Below the pieces are notes generated by a model. It saw nothing but the letters and a program-made list of their open reading frames with translations, had not been told where the DNA came from and did not search any database. From contig JAVZLQ010000003.1 in assembly GCA_038883655.1 (NCBI GenBank), positions 160,001 through 224,000 on the forward strand: DNA of 64,000 nucleotides, in the 5' to 3' direction. The position numbers and the translations under genes are program-made. How positions within the stretch are numbered: position 1 is the first letter of the stretch; every line of letters starts with the position of its first letter. The stretch comes from Candidatus Bathyarchaeia archaeon (lineage in GTDB: Archaea > Thermoproteota > Bathyarchaeia > Bathyarchaeales > Bathycorpusculaceae). Shown here piece after piece: positions 44,408-53,935 of this stretch.

Positions 44408-45625
44408 TTAAACCTTCTTTTTCAGTGTTGTGAAACATATGTTATTCTTGATTTTGCTGCCGATGGCAAAAAGCGCAGAGTGTAGTTTGGTAAGACCTTT
44501 TTTGAACTTTTCCACAAGCATAAATCTTTCAATGCAAATGATTAACAATATATAGAAAAGCATCCACGTTAAGAAGTATAACTCGCCATACGTATCATGA
44601 AAAGTTAGTGCCGCTTGGCTTCCACTATTAAGTCCTATTATTAGGATGGATGCCACCCGCAAAACATTTACGAAGTATGTTCCAAAAAATCCACAAATGA
44701 AATATACAGCCTTTCTAAAACTCGAAAATTCTGAACGCTTGAAAAACACGAAAATTATTAGCACATAAAGAATTAAACTGTGAACACCAGAACAAGGCCA
44801 GTCCACAGTCGCACTATAACTAGCACCACCATAACGCACAGTCAAAAGAGGAAGCTTATAACCGGGTCTTGCTGGGTATGGGAAACTCAACACAACAGTG
44901 TAGCCTAGTATGTGGAGTAAAGCGGCTGATAAGGCTGTTGTTGGAAAAGTAATAAGCAGATGCACGGATAACTCCGATGGATAAAGTGTATTAATCATAT
45001 ATGCAGCAGTGATAACACCTAGCAGTGAAATTGAAATGGAAAACGTTTTCAATCCCAGCAGTCCATACGCAAAAATCACAGCTAACGTAAAGGATAACCA
45101 TAAAACAAGGTATTCGATGGACAATGGCCAGTGAAACGTTAAAAGGCTTTCTCGATCTACAGGCTCATTGACTCCCAAGTATTGACCAAGATCAAGAATC
45201 ACTTTAGTGGCACCCGGAATGGCGTTTACAAAAATGATGTACATCGTCGGTATCAGCAAACAAAAAATTCCTATTGCTAAGCGTTTAGTTGGTTTTTTAC
45301 AGAGAATTTGATCTCGGCTAGTTATGAATTCTATAAAGAACAGCCATACAAAAAACAAATAAAACATACGTCCTTTCCACGTTTCTTCAAAGACGAACCT
45401 TGATGGAACAAAATTTGGCCAAGTTTTCACGTTAAAATATTGGAAACTTTCAATATCAAGGTAATCTATGACAAGCAACAGGGCTACTGGAAGCACTAGT
45501 AACAACAAAAAAACTGTATGAAATGAATATTTCCTCAAATTACTGAAAATTGTATTTTTGAATACTGCTTTCAAATTCGCTAGCCTCAGCGAGTTTAATA
45601 TTTTTAAGGGTATAAAAGCATTCAT
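44408..45625 (-). CDS. Exosortase/archaeosortase family membrane transpeptidase
   Basis: Multi-TM protein with catalytic-triad pattern V.WPCSG (Cys), NVLRV (Arg), FHD (His). Confidence 0.82.
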   Translation of the reverse strand: MNAFIPLKILNSLRLANLKAVFKNTIFSNLRKYSFHTVFLLLLVLPVALLLVIDYLDIESFQYFNVKTWPNFVPSRFVFEETWKGRMFYLFFVWLFFIEFITSRDQILCKKPTKRLAIGIFCLLIPTMYIIFVNAIPGATKVILDLGQYLGVNEPVDRESLLTFHWPLSIEYLVLWLSFTLAVIFAYGLLGLKTFSISISLLGVITAAYMINTLYPSELSVHLLITFPTTALSAALLHILGYTVVLSFPYPARPGYKLPLLTVRYGGASYSATVDWPCSGVHSLILYVLIIFVFFKRSEFSSFRKAVYFICGFFGTYFVNVLRVASILIIGLNSGSQAALTFHDTYGELYFLTWMLFYILLIICIERFMLVEKFKKGLTKLHSALFAIGSKIKNNICFTTLKKKV

Positions 45626-47379
45626 GACGTGTTAACCGCTTTTTTAAAAATGAGTAAGATGACTTTGATCAAACATAGGTTTCTAAGAGTTACCGATAGG
45701 AATTTGAATGCTGCCATTAAGATTGGGCGATAAAAAGAATCATAGCGAAATCTCATTTTGTCTAAAACGCTTGGTGGAAAAGGCAGGAAAAATTTTTCAG
45801 TCTTTATCAATGTGAACTTTTCCTTTTGCGCTGCTTTTTTAAATTCTGTAACATTCGGTTCAGAGATGTGTTCTGGATACCTAAAACCAAGCGCGTTTTT
45901 TATACGCTCATCAGGAAAACTTACAAAAAGCCATTTTTTAGTTATTCGTAACAATTCGTTAAAACCTATGTTTGGATTTATGGTGTGCTCAAGAACTTCG
46001 CTACAAATCGTGACCTCTGCGATATCTTGTTTAAAGGGCAGATAATTGACGTCGCACACGATTCGCTCAATGCTTGATGCTTTTTTTAAGGACTCCTTAT
46101 CTATGTCGCAACCAACATAATACTCTACATCAAAACCTTTTTCATACAAGTACTGGTTAAATGCGCCCAAACCACATCCAACGTCTGTTAAAACTGAAAT
46201 TTTTTTCCCAACAAACTTTGCCAGCAAGGACTGCAGTTTTTCATACCGTGCTCTATAACACAACTTTGCATCATACGTTTCTGGTCTATAATCTGGAACT
46301 GTTTCCGTTTTTATCAAAGGTGCAAAAAATTTCCTCAGTTTGAGTTTAGGACCATTTAGAAGCGCTAGCACGAAGGCCCCAACAAATATTAGAAATGTAA
46401 AACCTAAAACCAAAACCATGTATGTTTGTGTTGGTTGGAATTTTTTGAAGATATACAGTTTACAGTTAACCGTATATTCATCGAAGAAATCCGGCTCTAT
46501 CACAGTTTTCTCGCTTCCATTTTGTATCGTGATTTTTCCAATGCCAACATTTGCATATGCTTCTTCTTCATATTTCCATTGCATATCATCCAAACCAATT
46601 GTTATAGCAATAAATGTGATTTGTTTGCTAAAATCCCTAAACAATGTGGTGCCGAACAACGTTTGGTTATACAAATCTATGTTAAAATTTATCGTTTTGC
46701 CTAAAATGATTTCCTCTTTTGGCGCTATCAGATATGGAAGCCAGTTTCTGTCTCTTGTGATCAGAAGTAGGATCACATGGTTAATCTTACCGCTTAAAAG
46801 CTTGACAGATCCCTCAATTCTAAAGTTTTGTTCAGCAATTTGTTGAAAAGGGCATGCCAGCATAACTTGTTGAAATCTTGAACTTTGACCTTTTGAAGCT
46901 TGAACATGCACGCCAATATACTTGCTTCCGTAAAGATCTACATAATTGAAAAGCGTATAGTTTGCTTCTCCCTCAAACACCTTGACCGCATATGAAGACG
47001 CTGGATCAATGAACCGCGTTTGGAGGGTAATGTTTGATGAACCCTCATTTGCGACAAGGCAGCATTGCTGTTGGAAAAGAATCCAATTTTCAAAGTCAAA
47101 TGGTCGTCCTTCAATTTCATATGGAATTTGTTTAAGAGTTGGACATCCCTCCAATTCCACACGCGATGTTGTGTTAAATATTAGATAGACCTTGTCGGAT
47201 GCTGCGAATGGTGGAACTTCGATATTAACTGGAGAATTTCTAATAACGTTGAACGTGTAATTTTTGGTATTTACGTCTGTTTTTATAAAATCTAATAAAG
47301 TATAAACGATAAGAAAACCGAAAACTGCCGTTAACACAAGAATTGTGTAAAATATTAACTTTAGTTTTGTGCTTGTCAT
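45622..47379 (-). CDS. Membrane protein: TM - large soluble domain - TM - class I SAM methyltransferase
   Basis: Two hydrophobic helices flank ~300 aa; C-terminal DVGCGLG, GCDID, CDVNYLPF, CSEVLEH; ATGA overlaps with both neighbours. Confidence 0.75.
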   Translation of the reverse strand: MTSTKLKLIFYTILVLTAVFGFLIVYTLLDFIKTDVNTKNYTFNVIRNSPVNIEVPPFAASDKVYLIFNTTSRVELEGCPTLKQIPYEIEGRPFDFENWILFQQQCCLVANEGSSNITLQTRFIDPASSYAVKVFEGEANYTLFNYVDLYGSKYIGVHVQASKGQSSRFQQVMLACPFQQIAEQNFRIEGSVKLLSGKINHVILLLITRDRNWLPYLIAPKEEIILGKTINFNIDLYNQTLFGTTLFRDFSKQITFIAITIGLDDMQWKYEEEAYANVGIGKITIQNGSEKTVIEPDFFDEYTVNCKLYIFKKFQPTQTYMVLVLGFTFLIFVGAFVLALLNGPKLKLRKFFAPLIKTETVPDYRPETYDAKLCYRARYEKLQSLLAKFVGKKISVLTDVGCGLGAFNQYLYEKGFDVEYYVGCDIDKESLKKASSIERIVCDVNYLPFKQDIAEVTICSEVLEHTINPNIGFNELLRITKKWLFVSFPDERIKNALGFRYPEHISEPNVTEFKKAAQKEKFTLIKTEKFFLPFPPSVLDKMRFRYDSFYRPILMAAFKFLSVTLRNLCLIKVILLIFKKAVNTS

Positions 47380-48569
47380 GTTTTTACTCTCCTTGTGAGA
47401 GATGCTGTTAGGACAAAGATGTAGAGAATAAATCTTAACATAATGGTTATAGAAAGCGGGAGCATAACACCGATCTGCAGAAAAAGTGGACAGTACCATA
47501 CTAGTGAATGAATTGTATTAACGATTTCAAAGGCTATTAAAGTCATTATTTGTTTATGCTTATTCCAGTTCATTGTGGCAATTGCCAACAGACAAATTTG
47601 AGGAATGTGCACTAGGGGATTGTAAAATGTGGAGAACGCAAGATATGAGAAGATTGCTAATGAGATCAAAGCTAAGGATTCTTTCTTGTCCTTGGCTTTT
47701 CTAGCAAGAAAGCTGATGCCAATAAGAGATGCGAATTGTAAGCTAAGGGATATGTAGGATAGTATGGGAAATTTCCATTCATATCTAAAGTGGTCATAGT
47801 ACGTTGGGGCGTACAACGTTGCAAACTGCCAAGAATAGAGTGTGCCATCAAAAGTAGGGTGCATAAAACCTGTATGCCCAAAATATCCATCGATCAGAGC
47901 AAAAATCGATTCGGATGGCCCTCTTAAAAGGTGACTTGTTGCAACAGAAATGTACATTAAAGGGTCTGCTATGAGGTATGGTAATGATATCAACAGCATT
48001 GTCAAAGCAAAAGAATACATAAGCACCACTTTTCTCTTTAAACCCTTGTAATAAATGATTAGTGGCGGTAAAAGTGCCACTGGATAAAATTTTGAAAGTG
48101 TACCGCATCCGCAAAAAAATCCAGCAAGCCAAGGATTCTCAAAAAAGTACAACGCCAGAAGTGCGAACGTTATTGCAATGGTATCTCCATGAGCAAGGAT
48201 AAGGGTGAAGTATATGACGGAGGGCATCAGAGTGATGATTAACGGTATGCTTAAGGTTCGCTCACGACTTAATTTAGCCACGTTCACGTACATTGTAAAT
48301 ATCATAAGAAAGAATGTAAGTGCATTAAAGAATAATAAAATGAAGTTGTAAGCGTAAGAATTAGAAAAAGTGATGTATAGAAAGTAATATGGTAGTCTAG
48401 CTATTGGGGGATAACCCGAACGAAAATCAATAAAAGGTAAGAGGTTGTTTCTCTGTAGAAAGACATCTTCAAAATTAGTTTGAGGGAAAAAACCTAAAAA
48501 AAGCAGTATAACAATTATAGCTGCAAAGGCTGATAATTCCAAGCCGATAAACCGCCGTAATAGAGACAA
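47376..48569 (-). CDS. GT-C superfamily membrane glycosyltransferase (GT87/PIG-M-like)
   Basis: ~10 TM; LPF.DF..GYPP, ...D, G...K.YP..LLP motifs typical of lipid-phosphate-sugar-dependent transferases. Confidence 0.7.
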   Translation of the reverse strand: MSLLRRFIGLELSAFAAIIVILLFLGFFPQTNFEDVFLQRNNLLPFIDFRSGYPPIARLPYYFLYITFSNSYAYNFILLFFNALTFFLMIFTMYVNVAKLSRERTLSIPLIITLMPSVIYFTLILAHGDTIAITFALLALYFFENPWLAGFFCGCGTLSKFYPVALLPPLIIYYKGLKRKVVLMYSFALTMLLISLPYLIADPLMYISVATSHLLRGPSESIFALIDGYFGHTGFMHPTFDGTLYSWQFATLYAPTYYDHFRYEWKFPILSYISLSLQFASLIGISFLARKAKDKKESLALISLAIFSYLAFSTFYNPLVHIPQICLLAIATMNWNKHKQIMTLIAFEIVNTIHSLVWYCPLFLQIGVMLPLSITIMLRFILYIFVLTASLTRRVKT

Positions 48570-48704
48570 CCGCGATCACCATGCTTAGATTTTAACTAAA
48601 TTTCTTCGGCGTGCTTTTAAAACTATCTTACTGGAAACGCTTGAAAAATTTAATTTTAACAAATTATTATCTCTATAATTCCGATAAATCTTTGAGCGAG
48701 ATGG

Positions 48705-49802
48705 GTGATGAAGAAAAGGAGCGCGGATTATTCGTTTCTGATGCTATCTTTTATATTAGCATGTTTTCCTATGCTTTTTCTTGAAACTGTTTTCTTGGCA
48801 TACATCGCCGTAAATAAACGCTATGTTGAGGTTGGAATGGGTTATAATGTTTGGTTTACTATGGATTGGGAAAATGACACTAATTGCATTGACAAACCTG
48901 TATTAGGCTATTATAAGTCTAATAACGTCGTCGTTTTACTTCAACACATAAAATGGTTTGATGAATTAGGCATAGATTTCGTAATTGTGAATTGGCAAGG
49001 AATATATTATAATCCTCCTTGCAACGAAAACGCACAATTATTTTTCCAAGTTCTAGCGAATTATACTGGAAAAAATAAAATTAAAGCGTGTATTTGCGTC
49101 CAAATAACTGGCAACTGGACCGATGAAACAGAAATCTACGATTATGTTTGGGACAATTTCGTAACAAAGTATTATCCAGTTTACCATCACTACCAAGGCA
49201 AACCACTAATACTGTTTTTCTCGGAATGCAGCACAATCTACAACAGCACAGATACACTCAAAAAGGACTCAAGGTTTACGGTCATATCAATGGGAGTTAA
49301 GAGTTACGATGACTGGTTATACAATGCCATTTACTACCCAGAAAGAGCAGATGAAAATCGCTGGTGCGCTGTGAAAAACTGGGAAGGAGACAGCCCGAGA
49401 TGTCGCCATATCCCCGTAACGCCAAGATTCGATGAGCGTCACATTGGATATATTTCAGATAGACCTCCATCTATTGGTTATTATGTTGATCCAGAATTAA
49501 CATGGTTATATGATGCAGAATGGGAAAAAGCGCTAAAGGCTGTCAAAGAAAACCAAGTTGATGTTATAACAATTTCTTGGTGGAACGAATTTGCAGAGCG
49601 AAGCCAAATAGAACCATGTTATGACGCCACAGCAAAAAGTGCAGACCCATATTTTATTTTTAATAAAACAAAATATTACATAAGCAGGTTGAGAGAAGAA
49701 ACTTTGATGCTGGATTATTGGCATTTCAAAGTTTGCGTGGCGATCCTTACACCAACTATCTTTTGGGCGGTACTCATGAGGAAGCGTGTACAGATTACTT
49801 AG
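48705..49802 (+). CDS. Glycoside hydrolase, GH99/GH71-like, membrane-anchored
   Basis: YNVWF, PVLGYY.S, GIDFVIVNW.G, GKPL, ISWWNEFAERSQIEP (ExxE catalytic pair of GH99); N- and C-terminal hydrophobic segments. Confidence 0.75.
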   Translation: MMKKRSADYSFLMLSFILACFPMLFLETVFLAYIAVNKRYVEVGMGYNVWFTMDWENDTNCIDKPVLGYYKSNNVVVLLQHIKWFDELGIDFVIVNWQGIYYNPPCNENAQLFFQVLANYTGKNKIKACICVQITGNWTDETEIYDYVWDNFVTKYYPVYHHYQGKPLILFFSECSTIYNSTDTLKKDSRFTVISMGVKSYDDWLYNAIYYPERADENRWCAVKNWEGDSPRCRHIPVTPRFDERHIGYISDRPPSIGYYVDPELTWLYDAEWEKALKAVKENQVDVITISWWNEFAERSQIEPCYDATAKSADPYFIFNKTKYYISRLREETLMLDYWHFKVCVAILTPTIFWAVLMRKRVQIT

Positions 49803-49821
49803 AAGCAGAAAACTCTAGAGA

Positions 49822-50853
49822 TTAGTCGAATGTTTTGGCAATAGAATTGAACAAATCTATGTGCGCTTGAACGTAGTGATCCACATTATACTTCCTAGCA
49901 TATTCATTTGCTCGCTCATATGTTTGCTTAGAAAAATGCTGCCACAGATTGATATCGTTCTTTAGCGAACGTATTATTTCGACTAGTTGCTCGCTTGATC
50001 CTTTGGCAAAAGAGAACCCGCCGAGAAGATTAGTGTTCTCTCTAACACCAATGAGGCTAGAGGCTATTGGCACACATCCGTACAATGCGCCTTCAACCAA
50101 AACGAGACCATACGCCTCCGTTGTGTTCAACGATGGAAGGCACACAACATGCGCTTGTTCATATAATCTCTGTAATCTATAATCATCCACATTCTCTTCA
50201 AACATCACATTTCTCAAATGTAAGCGTTCAACCATGTGCTTAAATTTAGCCTTGAGTGGGCCTTCCCCAACCAGAACAAAATTGACATCCCTTAACTCAT
50301 AAGCAGCCTTAATAAGTATGTTTATTCCTTTGAATGCACGAAACTGACCAACAAAAATAACAGTAAATTGCTTTTCATGTCGATCATGCAAATCATATTC
50401 TTTAGGCAAACTTAACGTAACAGGAGGACGGACAACTTTAACATTTGCCGCCGAAAACAAGTTGGCATATTCTATAGAATGGACAACAATTGCTCGCGCC
50501 CTTTTACAAGCTAAAAATCTATGAAAGCGCGTATACAACTGCGATATACGCTCAGACATCCAGCAGATTTCAGCGTGATGCGTGTATACTATGGCATTGC
50601 CCTTAGTAAGCAAACACACATCTGAAAGGAAAGGAGTTGGACCATGTATATGAACAACATCATAACCCTCATGTTTCTTGAAAGGAATAAAGTTGGGCTT
50701 GAACTCTCCGACCCTGCGTTTCGGAGATTCAACGTCAACATGCCAACCACGCTTACGTAAACCATCAATAAGCACGTCTACAAGCCGGGCAATTCCACCC
50801 TTATATGGGGGAACATCCGTTGCTATTTCTAGAACATTAAGTGTCATTTTCAA
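49822..50853 (-). CDS. Glycosyltransferase family 4 (GT-B)
   Basis: PPYKGGI, VHIH, FVGQFR.FKG, VGEGP, LPS...EAYGLVLVEG...G. Confidence 0.88.
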   Translation of the reverse strand: MKMTLNVLEIATDVPPYKGGIARLVDVLIDGLRKRGWHVDVESPKRRVGEFKPNFIPFKKHEGYDVVHIHGPTPFLSDVCLLTKGNAIVYTHHAEICWMSERISQLYTRFHRFLACKRARAIVVHSIEYANLFSAANVKVVRPPVTLSLPKEYDLHDRHEKQFTVIFVGQFRAFKGINILIKAAYELRDVNFVLVGEGPLKAKFKHMVERLHLRNVMFEENVDDYRLQRLYEQAHVVCLPSLNTTEAYGLVLVEGALYGCVPIASSLIGVRENTNLLGGFSFAKGSSEQLVEIIRSLKNDINLWQHFSKQTYERANEYARKYNVDHYVQAHIDLFNSIAKTFD

Positions 50854-51923
50854 GGCCTAATCAAACTTGTCGGGTGAACCAAGATTGAAGGATATGCCTC
50901 ACAGGGAGTCCAACAAAGCCTACATCCCTTAATCTCATTCCTTAATTTCACAGCAGCCGCAGACCTCAACAAAGCATGTATATCGTAGTTAAAATCACGG
51001 AGGTTACCGATTTTTTTGTCCAAAATGATACACGGATACACATCTCCATAAGGATTCAAAAACAACGAATTATATAACGCCACACAACTCAGTGGCACAT
51101 GTTCCTCTAACATGTACTTCTGCGCGAGTTTTAGATAAGTTTTTGAAACCAACGCTAACGGAGACTTACTACGCACAGAACGCAATCCGGCGGAAAGATC
51201 CTCTAAAGCTTTGTCTTTAAATGTGTTACCACTCACTTGTTGATTTGAATCTAAATTATCATATAGATTTCCAGTGTGGTAGATGGTCACCGTTACATTT
51301 TCCAGAAGCCAACGCAAATCTTTTCTTGCTAATTCGTCAAATAACAATGTTAGAGAACCAGCATTAAATGGAGTAGCAGTATATTCGAACCCTACAGATA
51401 AATTGTTAAATTCCTTACTGAGCGCATGCAACATTTCAATTGTTTTAACAGCTTTACTAAAGGCTCCATTAATTCCACGCATGTTATCATGCACTTCTGG
51501 AGGCCCATCTAAGCTTACGTTTATAAAGGTAAGCGGCACATCAGCATCAAGCACTTTATAGACGTTTTTTTCTATTAAACACGTATCAAGACCGTTGGTT
51601 GTCAAATTAAGCATTTTGGGATTACAGTTTTCTTTAATTAAATTTGCTATGTCTCCGAGATCATTTCTGAGAAATGGTTCTCCTCCCGTGATGCTGATCC
51701 ACGCTAGTTTTTGAAATTTCTGGAATATAAGGGCTATTTCCTCTACCTTTAGTTCCTTGCTTACTAGCCATGGTTTATCAACATAACGTCTCCACGCGTT
51801 GCACATTTTGCAATGAGAGTTACATTTATAGGTAACAGCGAAATTTAATTTAAAAATCTCGCCCCTTAAATATGAAACAAGTATTTCTGTAAATGAACGA
51901 AATGCTTCAGTCAGTCTAATCAT
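50850..51923 (-). CDS. Radical SAM protein with SPASM/twitch domain
   Basis: CNSHCKMC, TGGEPFLR, TTNG, SLDG...HD..RG, C.A......PYGDVYPC...IGNL...CRLCWTPC. Confidence 0.88.
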   Translation of the reverse strand: MIRLTEAFRSFTEILVSYLRGEIFKLNFAVTYKCNSHCKMCNAWRRYVDKPWLVSKELKVEEIALIFQKFQKLAWISITGGEPFLRNDLGDIANLIKENCNPKMLNLTTNGLDTCLIEKNVYKVLDADVPLTFINVSLDGPPEVHDNMRGINGAFSKAVKTIEMLHALSKEFNNLSVGFEYTATPFNAGSLTLLFDELARKDLRWLLENVTVTIYHTGNLYDNLDSNQQVSGNTFKDKALEDLSAGLRSVRSKSPLALVSKTYLKLAQKYMLEEHVPLSCVALYNSLFLNPYGDVYPCIILDKKIGNLRDFNYDIHALLRSAAAVKLRNEIKGCRLCWTPCEAYPSILVHPTSLIRP

Positions 51924-52013
51924 ATGGTCACTGCTTTAGATTATACTACTTGCTTATTAAAATTTAGCACGAACATTCCTTTACAAGACTCTTCAGTAAA
52001 CATCAACCTAGAG

Positions 52014-52832
52014 CTAAAGCATAGTCCTATGAAGAACAACTTTTGCAAGTATGTAAGAGATGAATTGTTTAATTTCGTTGAACGCCAGTTTTGATTTGCC
52101 TCTCTTACGGTTTACAAATATTATTGGAACCTCACCTAATCTAAATCCCCTAATGTTCGCCTGTCTTACCGTTTCTATCTGTATCTCGTAGGTCTGGCTG
52201 TGCAGATCATCGATTATGCCCTTGACAAGCTTTGTAGAGTAGCACCGAAAACCACTTGTGTAGTCGTAGATCCCAGCCTTTACAACAATTGCCGCAACGA
52301 AATTAGCAACCTTACTTATCACTCGGCGGATCATACTCCAGTCTACAGTCCCACCGCCGCTACGATACCGGCTGCCAATAACCAGATCATAACCCCTATG
52401 AAAAGCTGCAACCAAACGCGGGATATCATTTGGATTATGAGAATAATCCGCATCCATAGTTATAATGCACTTGGGAGCGTTAGGCAGAGACAGAAATATC
52501 CGAAAACCATCGGTTATAGCCGTTCCAAGCCCCAGCTTCTGCGGTCTCACATATAACAAAACGTTTTCATACTTCTCTTGTAAATCTCTAACAATGTTGG
52601 CTGTTCCATCTGGGCTTGAGTCGTCTATGACTAAAATGGAGACATTAAGGTTTAAACTTTCAATTTCTTCGATTAGGTTTTTAATATTAGGGGCTTCACA
52701 GTACGTCGGAAGGACAACACCCACATCAGAGGCTACACTCAAATCTCCTTCAACATTCTCTATTGAATTCACGTTAACTGAGTAACACTCCTTAACGTTC
52801 ATTTTATGTCTCATCGCCAGAATGGTCTTCAT
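52014..52832 (-). CDS. Polyprenol/dolichol-phosphate sugar synthase (GT2, DPM1-like)
   Basis: VLPTY.E..NI, IDDSSPDGT, GLG.A...GF, MDADYSH.P, IGSRY..GG, D.TSGFR.Y, EVPI.F..R..G.SK. Confidence 0.88.
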   Translation of the reverse strand: MKTILAMRHKMNVKECYSVNVNSIENVEGDLSVASDVGVVLPTYCEAPNIKNLIEEIESLNLNVSILVIDDSSPDGTANIVRDLQEKYENVLLYVRPQKLGLGTAITDGFRIFLSLPNAPKCIITMDADYSHNPNDIPRLVAAFHRGYDLVIGSRYRSGGGTVDWSMIRRVISKVANFVAAIVVKAGIYDYTSGFRCYSTKLVKGIIDDLHSQTYEIQIETVRQANIRGFRLGEVPIIFVNRKRGKSKLAFNEIKQFISYILAKVVLHRTML

Positions 52833-52888: not shown

Positions 52889-53935
52889 TTAGCACAGCCG
52901 CAGTTTCCTTTTGTAATAACCCAGTGGGTGGCGTATTGTTTTGCAAATCTCGTCAGGGTTTACGCATACTCCATGTGTTTGTAGCGTTTCACATTTTGGC
53001 GGGGTGTAGCGTGTTCTCGAGCCTCTTTCGCCGGCAATATGTTCAACTTGGTATTGAGTCATTCTTTCGTTGAAGTCGGAGAAGTTTCTGAATAAGTCGA
53101 TTACGTTTTCGGTTGGCATGCCGACGTTTATCAGGAAGGATGTTAGAGTGAACCTTCCTACATGCGATAAGTGGCGCCCAACAGTGACGGATTCGTAGAG
53201 GGATTTAATGCATGGAGGAAAAGCTTCATTAACAATTGTTTTTGGTAGACCTTCGATTTCTGCTTCGCCTATTTTTTCGATGGATAATTTTCTTATTTTC
53301 TCGGCTATTTCAACAATTTCTATTGGAAACTTTAGTTTATCCTTAACCTCTAGTCGTTTCTCAACATATCTGCGAACCTCTTCGCTTAACAGCCTCGCGG
53401 TTTCGCCCCGCGTAATAAAGACACTTCCCTTAGATAACAAGCGGTTTACGAGTTTCCATTTTTTGTCCCGCAAGTGAATGGTGTTTCTTAAGTAATCGGC
53501 GAAGTTTAAACTAAATTCATATGGTGCAAAGGCAATGTTGTCGATTGGAGATATTTTCCACCCGAAATTTTGAGCAACAGCAAGAAGCTTTTCTCTTGAT
53601 TCGACTTTGAGGTCATTAAAAACCTTTTTTGCTTCTGCAAGGGCGTATCTTTTTTTAATGAAGGAGTTTTCTGTTGCTATTGCCAGAATTATTGCCGTTG
53701 GGAAGGATAAGATTTCTATATCTTCGTTTCGCGAGTCTCCACTAACAATAGCATATAAAACCGCTTCTTCGAGTCTCCCTTGCGCACGTTTGAGAACTGC
53801 ATTGAACTGGGGGTCAACTAGTTCTTCAACTTTAAAATCTAGTTCTTTCACGTATTTGCCTGCTTCTTTTAAGAAGGGGTATTTTGCCAAATCATTTTTT
53901 GTGAATTTTGTTGTGGATTGCATTTGTTTGTTCAC
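52889..53935 (-). CDS. priL: DNA primase large subunit
   Basis: AKYPF, FPPCI, H..RF.L..FL, DF.E..T.YQV.HI.G, YTPPKC.TL...G.C...C..I.HPL.YY. Confidence 0.94.
   Translation of the reverse strand: MNKQMQSTTKFTKNDLAKYPFLKEAGKYVKELDFKVEELVDPQFNAVLKRAQGRLEEAVLYAIVSGDSRNEDIEILSFPTAIILAIATENSFIKKRYALAEAKKVFNDLKVESREKLLAVAQNFGWKISPIDNIAFAPYEFSLNFADYLRNTIHLRDKKWKLVNRLLSKGSVFITRGETARLLSEEVRRYVEKRLEVKDKLKFPIEIVEIAEKIRKLSIEKIGEAEIEGLPKTIVNEAFPPCIKSLYESVTVGRHLSHVGRFTLTSFLINVGMPTENVIDLFRNFSDFNERMTQYQVEHIAGERGSRTRYTPPKCETLQTHGVCVNPDEICKTIRHPLGYYKRKLRLC

Follow-up and report, generated by a model that had tools for sequence, protein, structure and literature searches.

Within a window of 64,000 nucleotides (the whole stretch of DNA analysed: positions 160,001 to 224,000 of contig JAVZLQ010000003.1, assembly GCA_038883655.1) from a Bathyarchaeia archaeon, we found three overlapping genes between the primase genes priL and priS. 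They encode a compact GT-C glycosyltransferase, a membrane protein that joins an ectodomain to a methyltransferase (the methyltransferase fusion), and an archaeosortase. Three further loci (L046, L066 and, probably not as an independent case, L056) contain these genes in the same arrangement, and the sortase of the trio belongs to a deep clade (T) other than the one resident at this place in relatives (R). The region is probably, if with considerable room for doubt, a strain-variable cell-surface glycosylation cassette whose core is the translationally coupled trio, with the T-clade sortase coupled to the glycan module. The host genome is a Bathyarchaeia metagenome-assembled genome (MAG) of 1.42 Mb in 19 contigs, 93% complete and with 6.5% contamination.

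Recurrence of the trio and the variable slot of the primase cluster

A preliminary description of this DNA had assigned domains to seven genes and joined the last three by ATGA overlaps. We confirmed all seven open reading frames (ORFs) at the coordinates it gave and upheld every domain call. Both overlaps are real as read from the sequence: the stop codon of the GT-C gene overlaps the start of the methyltransferase fusion (AACATGACA), and the stop of the fusion overlaps the start of the sortase gene (GTCATGAAT). The radical SAM (rSAM; SAM, S-adenosylmethionine) and GT4 genes abut (TTGAAAATG). The features, with TM for transmembrane helix, are the following.

52889..53935, minus strand: priL, large subunit of the primase; bounds the variable slot on the left
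52014..52832, minus strand: GT2 polyprenyl-phosphate sugar synthase (PF00535, 1.1e-28); resident gene at the priL edge
50850..51923, minus strand: radical SAM/SPASM protein (PF04055 and PF13186); accessory gene
49822..50853, minus strand: GT4 glycosyltransferase (PF00534, 1.9e-24), start TTG 50853 or ATG 50847; accessory gene
48705..49802, plus strand: GH99-like extracytoplasmic protein, endo-alpha-mannosidase-like, hydrophobic segments at both ends; accessory gene
48570..48704, no strand: AT-rich spacer separating the divergent GH99-like gene and GT-C trio; presumed to hold promoters, from sequence reading
47376..48569, minus strand: compact GT-C glycosyltransferase; divergent and GT87-like by sequence, ALG3/PIG-M/ALG6/PimE/PIGU fold group
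45622..47379, minus strand: bitopic methyltransferase fusion; TM, all-beta ectodomain (~35-316), TM, class I SAM methyltransferase
44408..45625, minus strand: archaeosortase, T clade; TIGR04178 above cut-off; sole exo/archaeosortase of the genome
43166..44374, minus strand: priS, small subunit of the primase; bounds the variable slot on the right

Locus L046 lies on a 405-kb metagenome contig whose PCNA is 98% identical to that of the window. Its order is priL-GT2-(a different GT4)-GT-C-methyltransferase fusion-sortase-priS, with 77% (GT-C), 71% (methyltransferase fusion) and 75% (sortase) identity to the window proteins and no rSAM or GH99 gene. L066 comes from another Bathyarchaeia genome, whose PriL is 63% identical to the window's. 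Identities of its trio proteins were 52%, 46% and 46%, respectively, and the trio is followed by a 905-aa PMT_2 protein, an LPG_synthase_TM protein, a GT2, an epimerase, priL and PCNA. The ATGA overlaps are retained or substituted by other overlaps in L046 and L066. As a separate observation, the LPG_synthase_TM protein (L066:6454-7443), which is of the MprF type and flippase-like, adjoins the GT2; the window island has no such gene.

L056 is a 6,967-bp contig (G282:C47:1-6967) that carries rSAM-GT4-GH99-GT-C-methyltransferase fusion-sortase at 90-97% protein identity. It is assigned to a genome of another genus, in which PriS shares only 55% identity with that of the window and a separate sortase adjoins priS. 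L056 therefore does not count as independent evidence; misbinning, or a recent transfer of the complete cassette, is the probable origin of this contig. Synteny across genomes, which the preliminary description had proposed to look for, was found for sortase, GT-C and methyltransferase fusion in L046, L066 and L056. Its picture of one seven-gene island has to be given up: the GT2 is resident family-wide, and the rSAM, GT4 and GH99 genes of the window are missing in two of the three other trio loci. A single operon of all seven genes was also rejected, because the GH99-like gene lies on the opposite strand and gene content differs between loci.

A metagenome scan returned one trio locus. A scan of genome contigs found one full-length relative among 80 kept loci, the rest being generic methyltransferase domains. 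For six of the 13 non-self homologs of the fusion, the longest contig has the same size as for the top sortase matches (5830, 6513, 4742, 29369, 36991 and 7727); for five of the 13, it has the same size as for GT-C matches. These equal sizes suggest, but do not prove, that the genes are co-located on the same contigs.

The window stretch is present in hot-spring metagenome runs of three studies; none of the runs listed as holding it was of RNA, two that are labelled metatranscriptomic being flagged as probably DNA. In four runs of one other study (X2-X5), contigs span the trio and both flanks at 90-100% likeness; they give little or no cover at 48.9-51.7 kb (GH99, GT4 and rSAM), which proves nothing. 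A 1,606-nt run contig matches the window at 48078-48568 only and diverges past the GT-C start, in agreement with variable content upstream of the trio.

Flanking genes of the island are priS-Gins51-eIF2alpha at one end and priL-PCNA at the opposite end. Base composition differs between its six genes (GC 0.36-0.41; GC at third codon positions, GC3, 0.34-0.37) and the flanks (GC 0.41-0.45; GC3 0.40-0.47). We searched for sortase homologs in 41 genomes, the host's own included, obtained matches in 32 and retrieved 20 relatives' loci around them for comparison. The sortase was in the same stretch as priS and/or priL in 16 of these loci. A GT2 copy, 59-70% identical to that of the window, adjoined priL in 12 of the 20, and L046 has an 81% copy; the content between GT2 and priS varied from locus to locus.

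Scanning of 90 ORFs from the 16 primase-linked loci with Pfam revealed GT4s, further GT2s, class I methyltransferases and NDP-sugar epimerases/dehydratases. A single large polytopic membrane protein was present in 14 of the 16, assigned to DUF2079 (four), DUF6541 or DUF6541-like (six), PMT_2 (one), weakly to YfhO (one) or to no family (two). The four DUF6541-like proteins (824-854 aa, 12-15 hydrophobic segments) are 32-51% identical over their full length to the two DUF6541 proteins. We take the DUF2079, DUF6541, PMT_2 and YfhO families to be members of the GT-C clan. From the varied content and the large membrane proteins we conclude that a conserved priL-priS slot hosts differing glycan cassettes, each with its own GT-C-type enzyme, and that the GT2, which resembles dolichol-phosphate mannose synthase (DPMS), is a resident slot gene outside the variable cassette. 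At the edge of the slot, the priS product has a rubredoxin-like zinc-ribbon insert at residues ~108-140 (PF21349, E 4.7e-6, just below cut-off).

The archaeosortase, its clades and its candidate substrates

The sortase scored 52.9 bits against TIGR04178 (cut-off 23) and 35.1 against PF09721 (cut-off 25.7), and it is the sole TIGR04178 match in the host genome (57.1 bits in the genome search). C278, R323 and H343 are invariant in 34 aligned sortase sequences; what the Cys and the conserved residues do in ArtA is treated in PMC7157517 and PMC6098224. The profile typing suggested by the preliminary description thus places the protein in the TIGR04178 superfamily. Two narrower assignments were rejected: thaumarchaeosortase (TIGR04297; 58.8 bits against a cut-off of 250, with only the C-terminal 110 residues covered) and archaeosortase C/ArtC (TIGR03762; 33.1 bits against 100).

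The trio-linked sortases of the window, L046 and L066 are mutually 50-78% identical and 34-43% identical to every other sortase compared. The low identity holds even against the same-genus loci L017, L021 and L029, where PriS/PriL share 76-86% identity with those of the window. In a quick IQ-TREE tree of 47 rows, with supports from the Shimodaira-Hasegawa-like approximate likelihood ratio test (SH-aLRT), the sortases formed two deep clades with support 100 each: R, the resident type next to priS/Gins51, and T. The window sortase fell in a 10-row T group (support 96) together with L046 and all six proteins with coincident contig sizes. The L066 sortase stands beside this group; the resulting 14-row group has a support of 80 and is drawn open. 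The T sister group (support 99) includes L014 and L015, whose sortases are not in a primase context but adjoin 990-aa PMT_2 proteins, a GT2 and an epimerase. In the window, the only sortase is of the T clade, occupies the place of the R type in same-genus relatives and has the opposite orientation. The cassette thus seems to have brought its own sortase, displacing the resident one.

Two further observations concern the sortase family. The metagenome contigs L049 and L050 carry priL-sortase-priS with no glycan genes between them; their sortase shares 39% identity with that of the window and groups with the T half of the tree. In 12 relatives, ORFs of 590-752 aa have a C-terminal part matching sortase residues ~160-400 (for example G022:C21:538-1230, G031:C44:4472-4981, G024:C3:282215-282841 and G026:C11:77149-77703); none occurs in the window's genome. 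They look like a fused, longer form of archaeosortase, and the G026 form passes TIGR04178 in its 687-aa frame.

Several findings weigh against a glycosylation cassette with a coupled sortase. R-clade sortases do not track the GT-C type of the slot, pairs with different types still being 55-73% identical, and the sortases of two other families (L020, L033) lie among housekeeping genes. L050 has the order priL-sortase-priS and no island. The G026 slot (L057) contains a GT-C (52% identical) and a methyltransferase fusion (44%) without a sortase; the two sortase-family matches of that genome lie on different contigs. In G103 (L058), a 336-aa ectodomain-only protein and a GT87 protein (49.2 bits), encoded with an overlap of 4 nt, have no sortase near them. 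The island lacks a flippase gene, the host genome is a contaminated MAG, the contig-size coincidences are an indirect indication only, and L056 adds no independent case. The preliminary reading of an archaeosortase-linked glycosylation island stands in part: the trio recurs, but its GT-C/ectodomain pair also occurs without a neighbouring sortase in G026 and G103.

Some of these points would fit an alternative in which sortase and glycan genes share a site without being coupled. On that account the sortase is a long-standing resident near priS/priL, glycan cassettes swap in a recombination hot spot, and the gene overlaps reflect compact packing after insertion. R-clade sortases indeed stay by priS/Gins51 throughout the family, irrespective of the kind of GT-C in the slot, the sortase has no or a minimal island in L050 and L028, and the G026 and G103 pairs without a sortase agree with it. 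We consider this explanation unlikely. The window sortase is not of the resident type; it falls in the other deep clade and accompanies GT-C and methyltransferase fusion in at least three loci with differing hosts. The start/stop overlaps are kept or replaced by others in L046 and L066, and the T sister subclade also abuts GT-C genes, outside the primase context.

The preliminary description had suggested a search of the proteome for a shared C-terminal sorting signal. We scanned the tails of all ORFs of at least 100 aa for [IVLFM]PE[FILVMYW] followed by a hydrophobic stretch and a basic tail. A cohort of 12 ORFs with an (I/V)PEF-TM-basic tail was found in the proteome; the reversed genome gave none, and 13 other dipeptides in place of PE gave 0-2. 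In the tail alignment, P and E are invariant and F is nearly so, with the consensus V-I-P-E-F-P-S. Signal-peptide-like N-termini are present in 12 of the 14 candidates listed; 11 of these have 6-32 N-x-S/T sequons and the twelfth has two. Pfam scans of 13 candidates detected four NosD/beta-helix proteins, two PQQ-type beta-propellers and one M28 peptidase with an IPEL variant of the motif; among the remainder, two had only below-cut-off matches to Ig-like or CarboxypepD_reg domains and four had no match.

Among the six matches to TIGR04296 (PEFG-CTERM) listed at E up to 10, one reached the cut-off (25.7 against 25), and none in the own genome passed TIGR03024 (PEF-CTERM; best 18.5 against 23); the tails do carry PEF as their motif. 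A profile built from these 12 sequences also had matches (4, 4, 12 and 3) in four genomes with an R-clade sortase at the locus, so this class of signal is not special to the T clade. AglB is encoded elsewhere on the same contig as the island. Its AglB/STT3 gene (816-aa frame, G000:C3:87830-88951) lies ~6 kb from a 188-aa PEF-tailed ORF (C3:81413-81979).

Enzymes of the glycan module

By sequence, the GT-C appears to be a divergent member of GT87: its own PF09594 score was 18.2 (cut-off 25), and 23 of 26 aligned family members match GT87 (best 1.1e-11). The G103 relative scored 49.2 bits. The PIG-M family was absent from the Pfam matches of the window proteins and the GT-C family at E up to 0.01. 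The family is small: 30 proteins at E <=0.001 were found among candidates scored from 5.8 billion, and 10 of the 401 genomes at class level, counting that of the window, have a match at E <=1e-10. Used as a profile against PDB sequences, the GT-C alignment gave no match. The structure model had a predicted local distance difference test score (pLDDT) of 79.4 and a predicted template modelling score (pTM) of 0.82; Foldseek found no match to it at E <=0.001.

A second look with VIA-align at 768 chains, the only step that separated two structural tiers, placed ALG3 at the top (Z 26.8; root-mean-square deviation, rmsd, 3.2 over 323 residues). The same tier contained PIGU (Z 22.3, 21.7, 21.1 and 20.5), GPI-MT-I (9wno_A; Z 21.6, rmsd 4.2, 337 residues; Foldseek TM-score 0.62), ALG6 (Z 21.3) and PimE (Z 19.7 with rmsd 4.4 over 322 residues, and 18.9); being compact, these proteins readily give long alignments. 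AglB/STT3 (Z <=14.9), Pmt1/2 (14.5) and ArnT (14.3) made up the second tier. A grouping of the GT-C with protein O-mannosyltransferases, the outcome that the preliminary description had guarded against, was thus not observed (Z 26.8-18.9 for the top tier against <=14.9 for AglB/STT3, Pmt and ArnT). In the model-based comparison all top-tier proteins transfer to, or bind, a lipid-linked glycan, which would be compatible with such a role here; fold alone does not show function. D34 and D35, just after the first TM helix, are at least 90% conserved, and D129, K160 and H232 are invariant, a pattern that fits an active enzyme. The catalytic D58 of PimE, as given in PMC12041525, sits at a like kind of position as D34/D35, a similarity of place and not an established residue-level match.

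In the long ORF of the methyltransferase fusion (45622-47499), ATG 47379 is the most likely start and yields a protein of 585 aa; the 13 non-self homologs all have 580-594 aa. The model contains a TM helix (2-34), an all-beta domain (36-311, pLDDT mostly 75-90), a second TM helix (318-342) and a class I methyltransferase of lower confidence; Pfam methyltransferase domains lie in the C-terminal third. By this predicted topology the methyltransferase domain would be cytoplasmic and membrane-held. Its fold matches at Z 13-16 include sugar, lipid-headgroup and small-molecule class I methyltransferases alike. Fold searches with the whole model were dominated by this domain and otherwise gave only weak rows for the birnavirus VP2 jelly roll. 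The ectodomain itself had no Pfam match, and Atlas matches stayed at <=0.80, the noise level.

The family of the fusion comprises 14 proteins including itself, and that of the ectodomain 12 representatives in 1.84 billion proteins. Ten of these 12 have 274-352 aa, which is too short for a methyltransferase domain, and in most of them the match starts at about residue 27-47, as in the fusion; one other, of 586 aa, is a fusion by Pfam. Since the ectodomain relatives are mostly ectodomain-only, GT-C and ectodomain protein are the older pair, to which the methyltransferase fusion and the sortase were added in the window's clade. The cluster in G103 that holds such a pair also encodes a 1,218-aa protein with a weak PTPS_related (GT-C-like) N-terminus and an F5/8 type C domain (L058:2885-6541).

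The DPM1-like character proposed earlier for the GT2 was borne out: its best solved relative is the dolichol-phosphate-mannose synthase 5mlz (E 6.6e-29, residues 36-261), with ArnC at ~1e-15. It stayed below the NCBIfam equivalog cut-offs, and the match does not determine the sugar transferred. Its copies in relatives are 59-82% identical overall. GT4 copies 51-54% identical occur in the slots of L057 and L032. The GH99-like protein scored 29.3 bits against PF16317 (cut-off 33) and 0.96 for the Atlas GH99/WbsX cluster; its hydrophobic segments are at 7-37 and 340-359. In the alignment with endo-alpha-mannosidase 4acy (E 3.3e-4), WWNEFAERSQIEP was aligned with SFNEWHEGTQIEP, and both Glu positions of the N-E-W-H-E-G region are kept (NEFAER against NEWHEG); this Glu pair presumably represents the catalytic residues of GH99.

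The rSAM protein matched PF04055 (57.8 bits, cut-off 29.5) and PF13186 (28.2, cut-off 21.5) and has a CNSHCKMC motif. Its best NCBIfam match, the PTO1314 family, reached 76 bits against a cut-off of 306, and PDB matches to MoaA (2e-8) and SkfB (1.5e-6) provided no informative relative. Among the loci compared, it was found again only in L056.

A possible mechanism and its relation to known anchoring systems

For mechanism and ALTERNATIVES, the most economical reading would follow the logic of the Haloferax Agl pathway, which uses AglD as dolichol-phosphate-mannose synthase, AglS as mannosyltransferase and AglP as methyltransferase (PMC3871713). The resident DPMS-like GT2 would load dolichol phosphate with mannose or another hexose at the cytoplasmic face, where GT4 and the membrane-tethered methyltransferase would act on the lipid-linked intermediate. 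After flipping, the GT-C and its ectodomain partner would extend the lipid-linked glycan outside the membrane, and the GH99-like protein may trim alpha-mannosidic links. The sortase (Cys278/Arg323/His343), judging from sequence, would cut the (I/V)PEF-TM-basic tails of about 12 secreted, sequon-rich proteins and re-anchor them, much as ArtA processes the S-layer glycoprotein (PMC6098224 and PMC7157517). Sortase and glycan module would then be coupled through the same surface glycoproteins at the same membrane site, a link that synteny supports. By analogy, the module may be an archaeal counterpart of the bacterial exosortases, which lie in exopolysaccharide loci (PMC1569441).

The preliminary description had read the island as a glycosylphosphatidylinositol (GPI)-like anchoring pathway that transfers proteins onto its product. 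The transfer found no support in our results, and key GPI functions were not found in the 93%-complete host genome: PIG-L (PF02585) had no match there while positive controls matched, and sulfatase-fold phosphoethanolamine transferases (PF00884) had none either, the PigN-specific family not having been searched. Phosphatidylserine decarboxylase/PssD (PF02666) was likewise without a match in this genome, which has two matches each for inositol-1-phosphate synthase and CDP-alcohol (phosphatidyl)transferase.

An anchor resembling GPI or the mycobacterial phosphatidylinositol mannosides (PIM) would have GT4, GT2 and a PIG-M/PimE-like GT-C build a mannosylated, methylated glycolipid on which the T-clade sortase resolves its acyl-enzyme, with the GT-C also acting as a PIGU-like lipid presenter. 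The structural group nearest to the GT-C, which consists solely of proteins acting on or binding lipid-linked glycans, would suit such a pathway, and so would a trio that is translationally coupled and recurs as a unit. PIGU offers a parallel: it is a GT-C-fold subunit of the GPI transamidase, and PimE resembles PIGU (PMC12041525). An archaetidylethanolamine route has been proposed for Haloferax ArtA (PMC7157517); with no phosphatidylserine decarboxylase found, such a route has no visible source here. The inositol-1-phosphate synthase and CDP-alcohol transferases are permissive only, in that they make inositol lipids possible. Against these points, the missing PIG-L and sulfatase-fold transferase leave no amine nucleophile on the glycan in sight, at a genome completeness of 93%. 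The GT-C is GT87-like by sequence and not GT50-like, a common fold being no proof of function; its pair occurs without an adjacent sortase; and the fold group fits equally well an ordinary extracytoplasmic extension of a dolichol-linked N-glycan precursor. We therefore consider a GPI- or PIM-like anchor quite unlikely. With the same small probability, and by analogy, the system would be a prokaryotic functional counterpart of the last GPI steps, a Cys transpeptidase paired with a GT-C-fold protein. The GT-C and its ectodomain partner would make and present the glycolipid, and the sortase would transfer the (I/V)PEF-tailed surface proteins onto it.

A further alternative would have the island make a mannan-like surface polymer to which the sortase links the PEF-tailed proteins, as hypothesised for PEP-CTERM/exosortase systems. 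The mannose-centred enzymes (DPMS-like GT2, GT87-like GT-C and GH99-like protein) and the tie of exosortases to exopolysaccharide loci (PMC1569441) speak for it. Pfam and NCBIfam scans of the island found no polymerase, chain-length regulator or export genes, its transferases number only two or three, and such a protein-polymer linkage is not known from archaea. We regard it as very improbable, and retain a glycosylation cassette with a coupled sortase as the preferred reading.

Judged by title and abstract, none of the publications listed that mention both Bathyarchaeota and archaeosortases addresses this subject, and no publication on thaumarchaeosortase was found. The nearest known systems share parts of the arrangement. 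With the bacterial exosortase (EpsH/XrtA)/PEP-CTERM system it has in common the TIGR04178 superfamily, a tripartite C-terminal signal on many secreted proteins and a sortase among glycosyltransferase genes. It differs from that system in its host, an archaeon that lacks an outer membrane, in its signal, (I/V)PEF and not PEP, and in its partners, a GT-C and an ecto-methyltransferase fusion instead of genes for exopolysaccharide polymerisation and export. Exosortase subfamilies are said (Haft, in 2012) to partner different glycan cohorts.

ArtA/PGF-CTERM of Haloferax volcanii, ArtC/PEF-CTERM and thaumarchaeosortase/PEFG-CTERM are similar in their Cys/Arg membrane transpeptidase, surface glycoprotein substrates and PEF-type motif, whereas the window sortase stays below the ArtC and thaumarchaeosortase cut-offs. 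Unlike in Haloferax, the PssD of the proposed ArtA lipid route was not found in the host, and translational coupling to a GT-C is undescribed for ArtA, whose genes are unclustered there (PMC7157517). The Haloferax Agl system (PMC3871713) likewise has a GT2 that loads dolichol phosphate, a polytopic outside transferase, a SAM methyltransferase that tailors a sugar, and strain-variable clusters. In the window, by contrast, a GT87-like GT-C of ALG3/PIG-M-like fold has an ectodomain protein as its dedicated partner, to which a membrane-tethered methyltransferase is fused, and the operon includes a sortase.

The mycobacterial PIM/lipomannan pathway (Ppm1, the GT4s PimA/B and the GT87 enzyme PimE) and eukaryotic GPI synthesis (DPM1, PIG-A, PIG-M and PIGU/PIGK) resemble the island in combining a DPMS-like GT2, a GT4 and a compact GT-C, here a presumed user of Dol-P/PP-Man. 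As PIGK is paired with PIGU, a Cys transpeptidase is encoded here beside a GT-C-fold protein, but the archaeosortase is not homologous to PIGK and has a different fold, and the likeness is one of fold and pathway logic only. Each part is of a known kind. The novelty lies in the translational coupling of a distinct clade of archaeosortase to a GT-C of the ALG3/PIG-M/PIGU fold and to a very rare ectodomain-methyltransferase fusion, in a glycan slot of the primase cluster where this sortase takes the place of the resident one.

Resolution of the archaeosortase acyl-enzyme is known only as a model from one haloarchaeon, and a compact three-gene system makes the link between glycan building and C-terminal anchoring testable. 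If the two processes are mechanistically linked, this would bear on the origin of GPI-type anchoring; should the GPI-like reading apply in spite of its low probability, it would mean a glycolipid protein anchor in a TACK-related archaeon. For the Bathyarchaeia themselves, the primase operon hosts a swappable surface-glycan slot, which is a likely arena of virus- or niche-driven variation of the cell surface.

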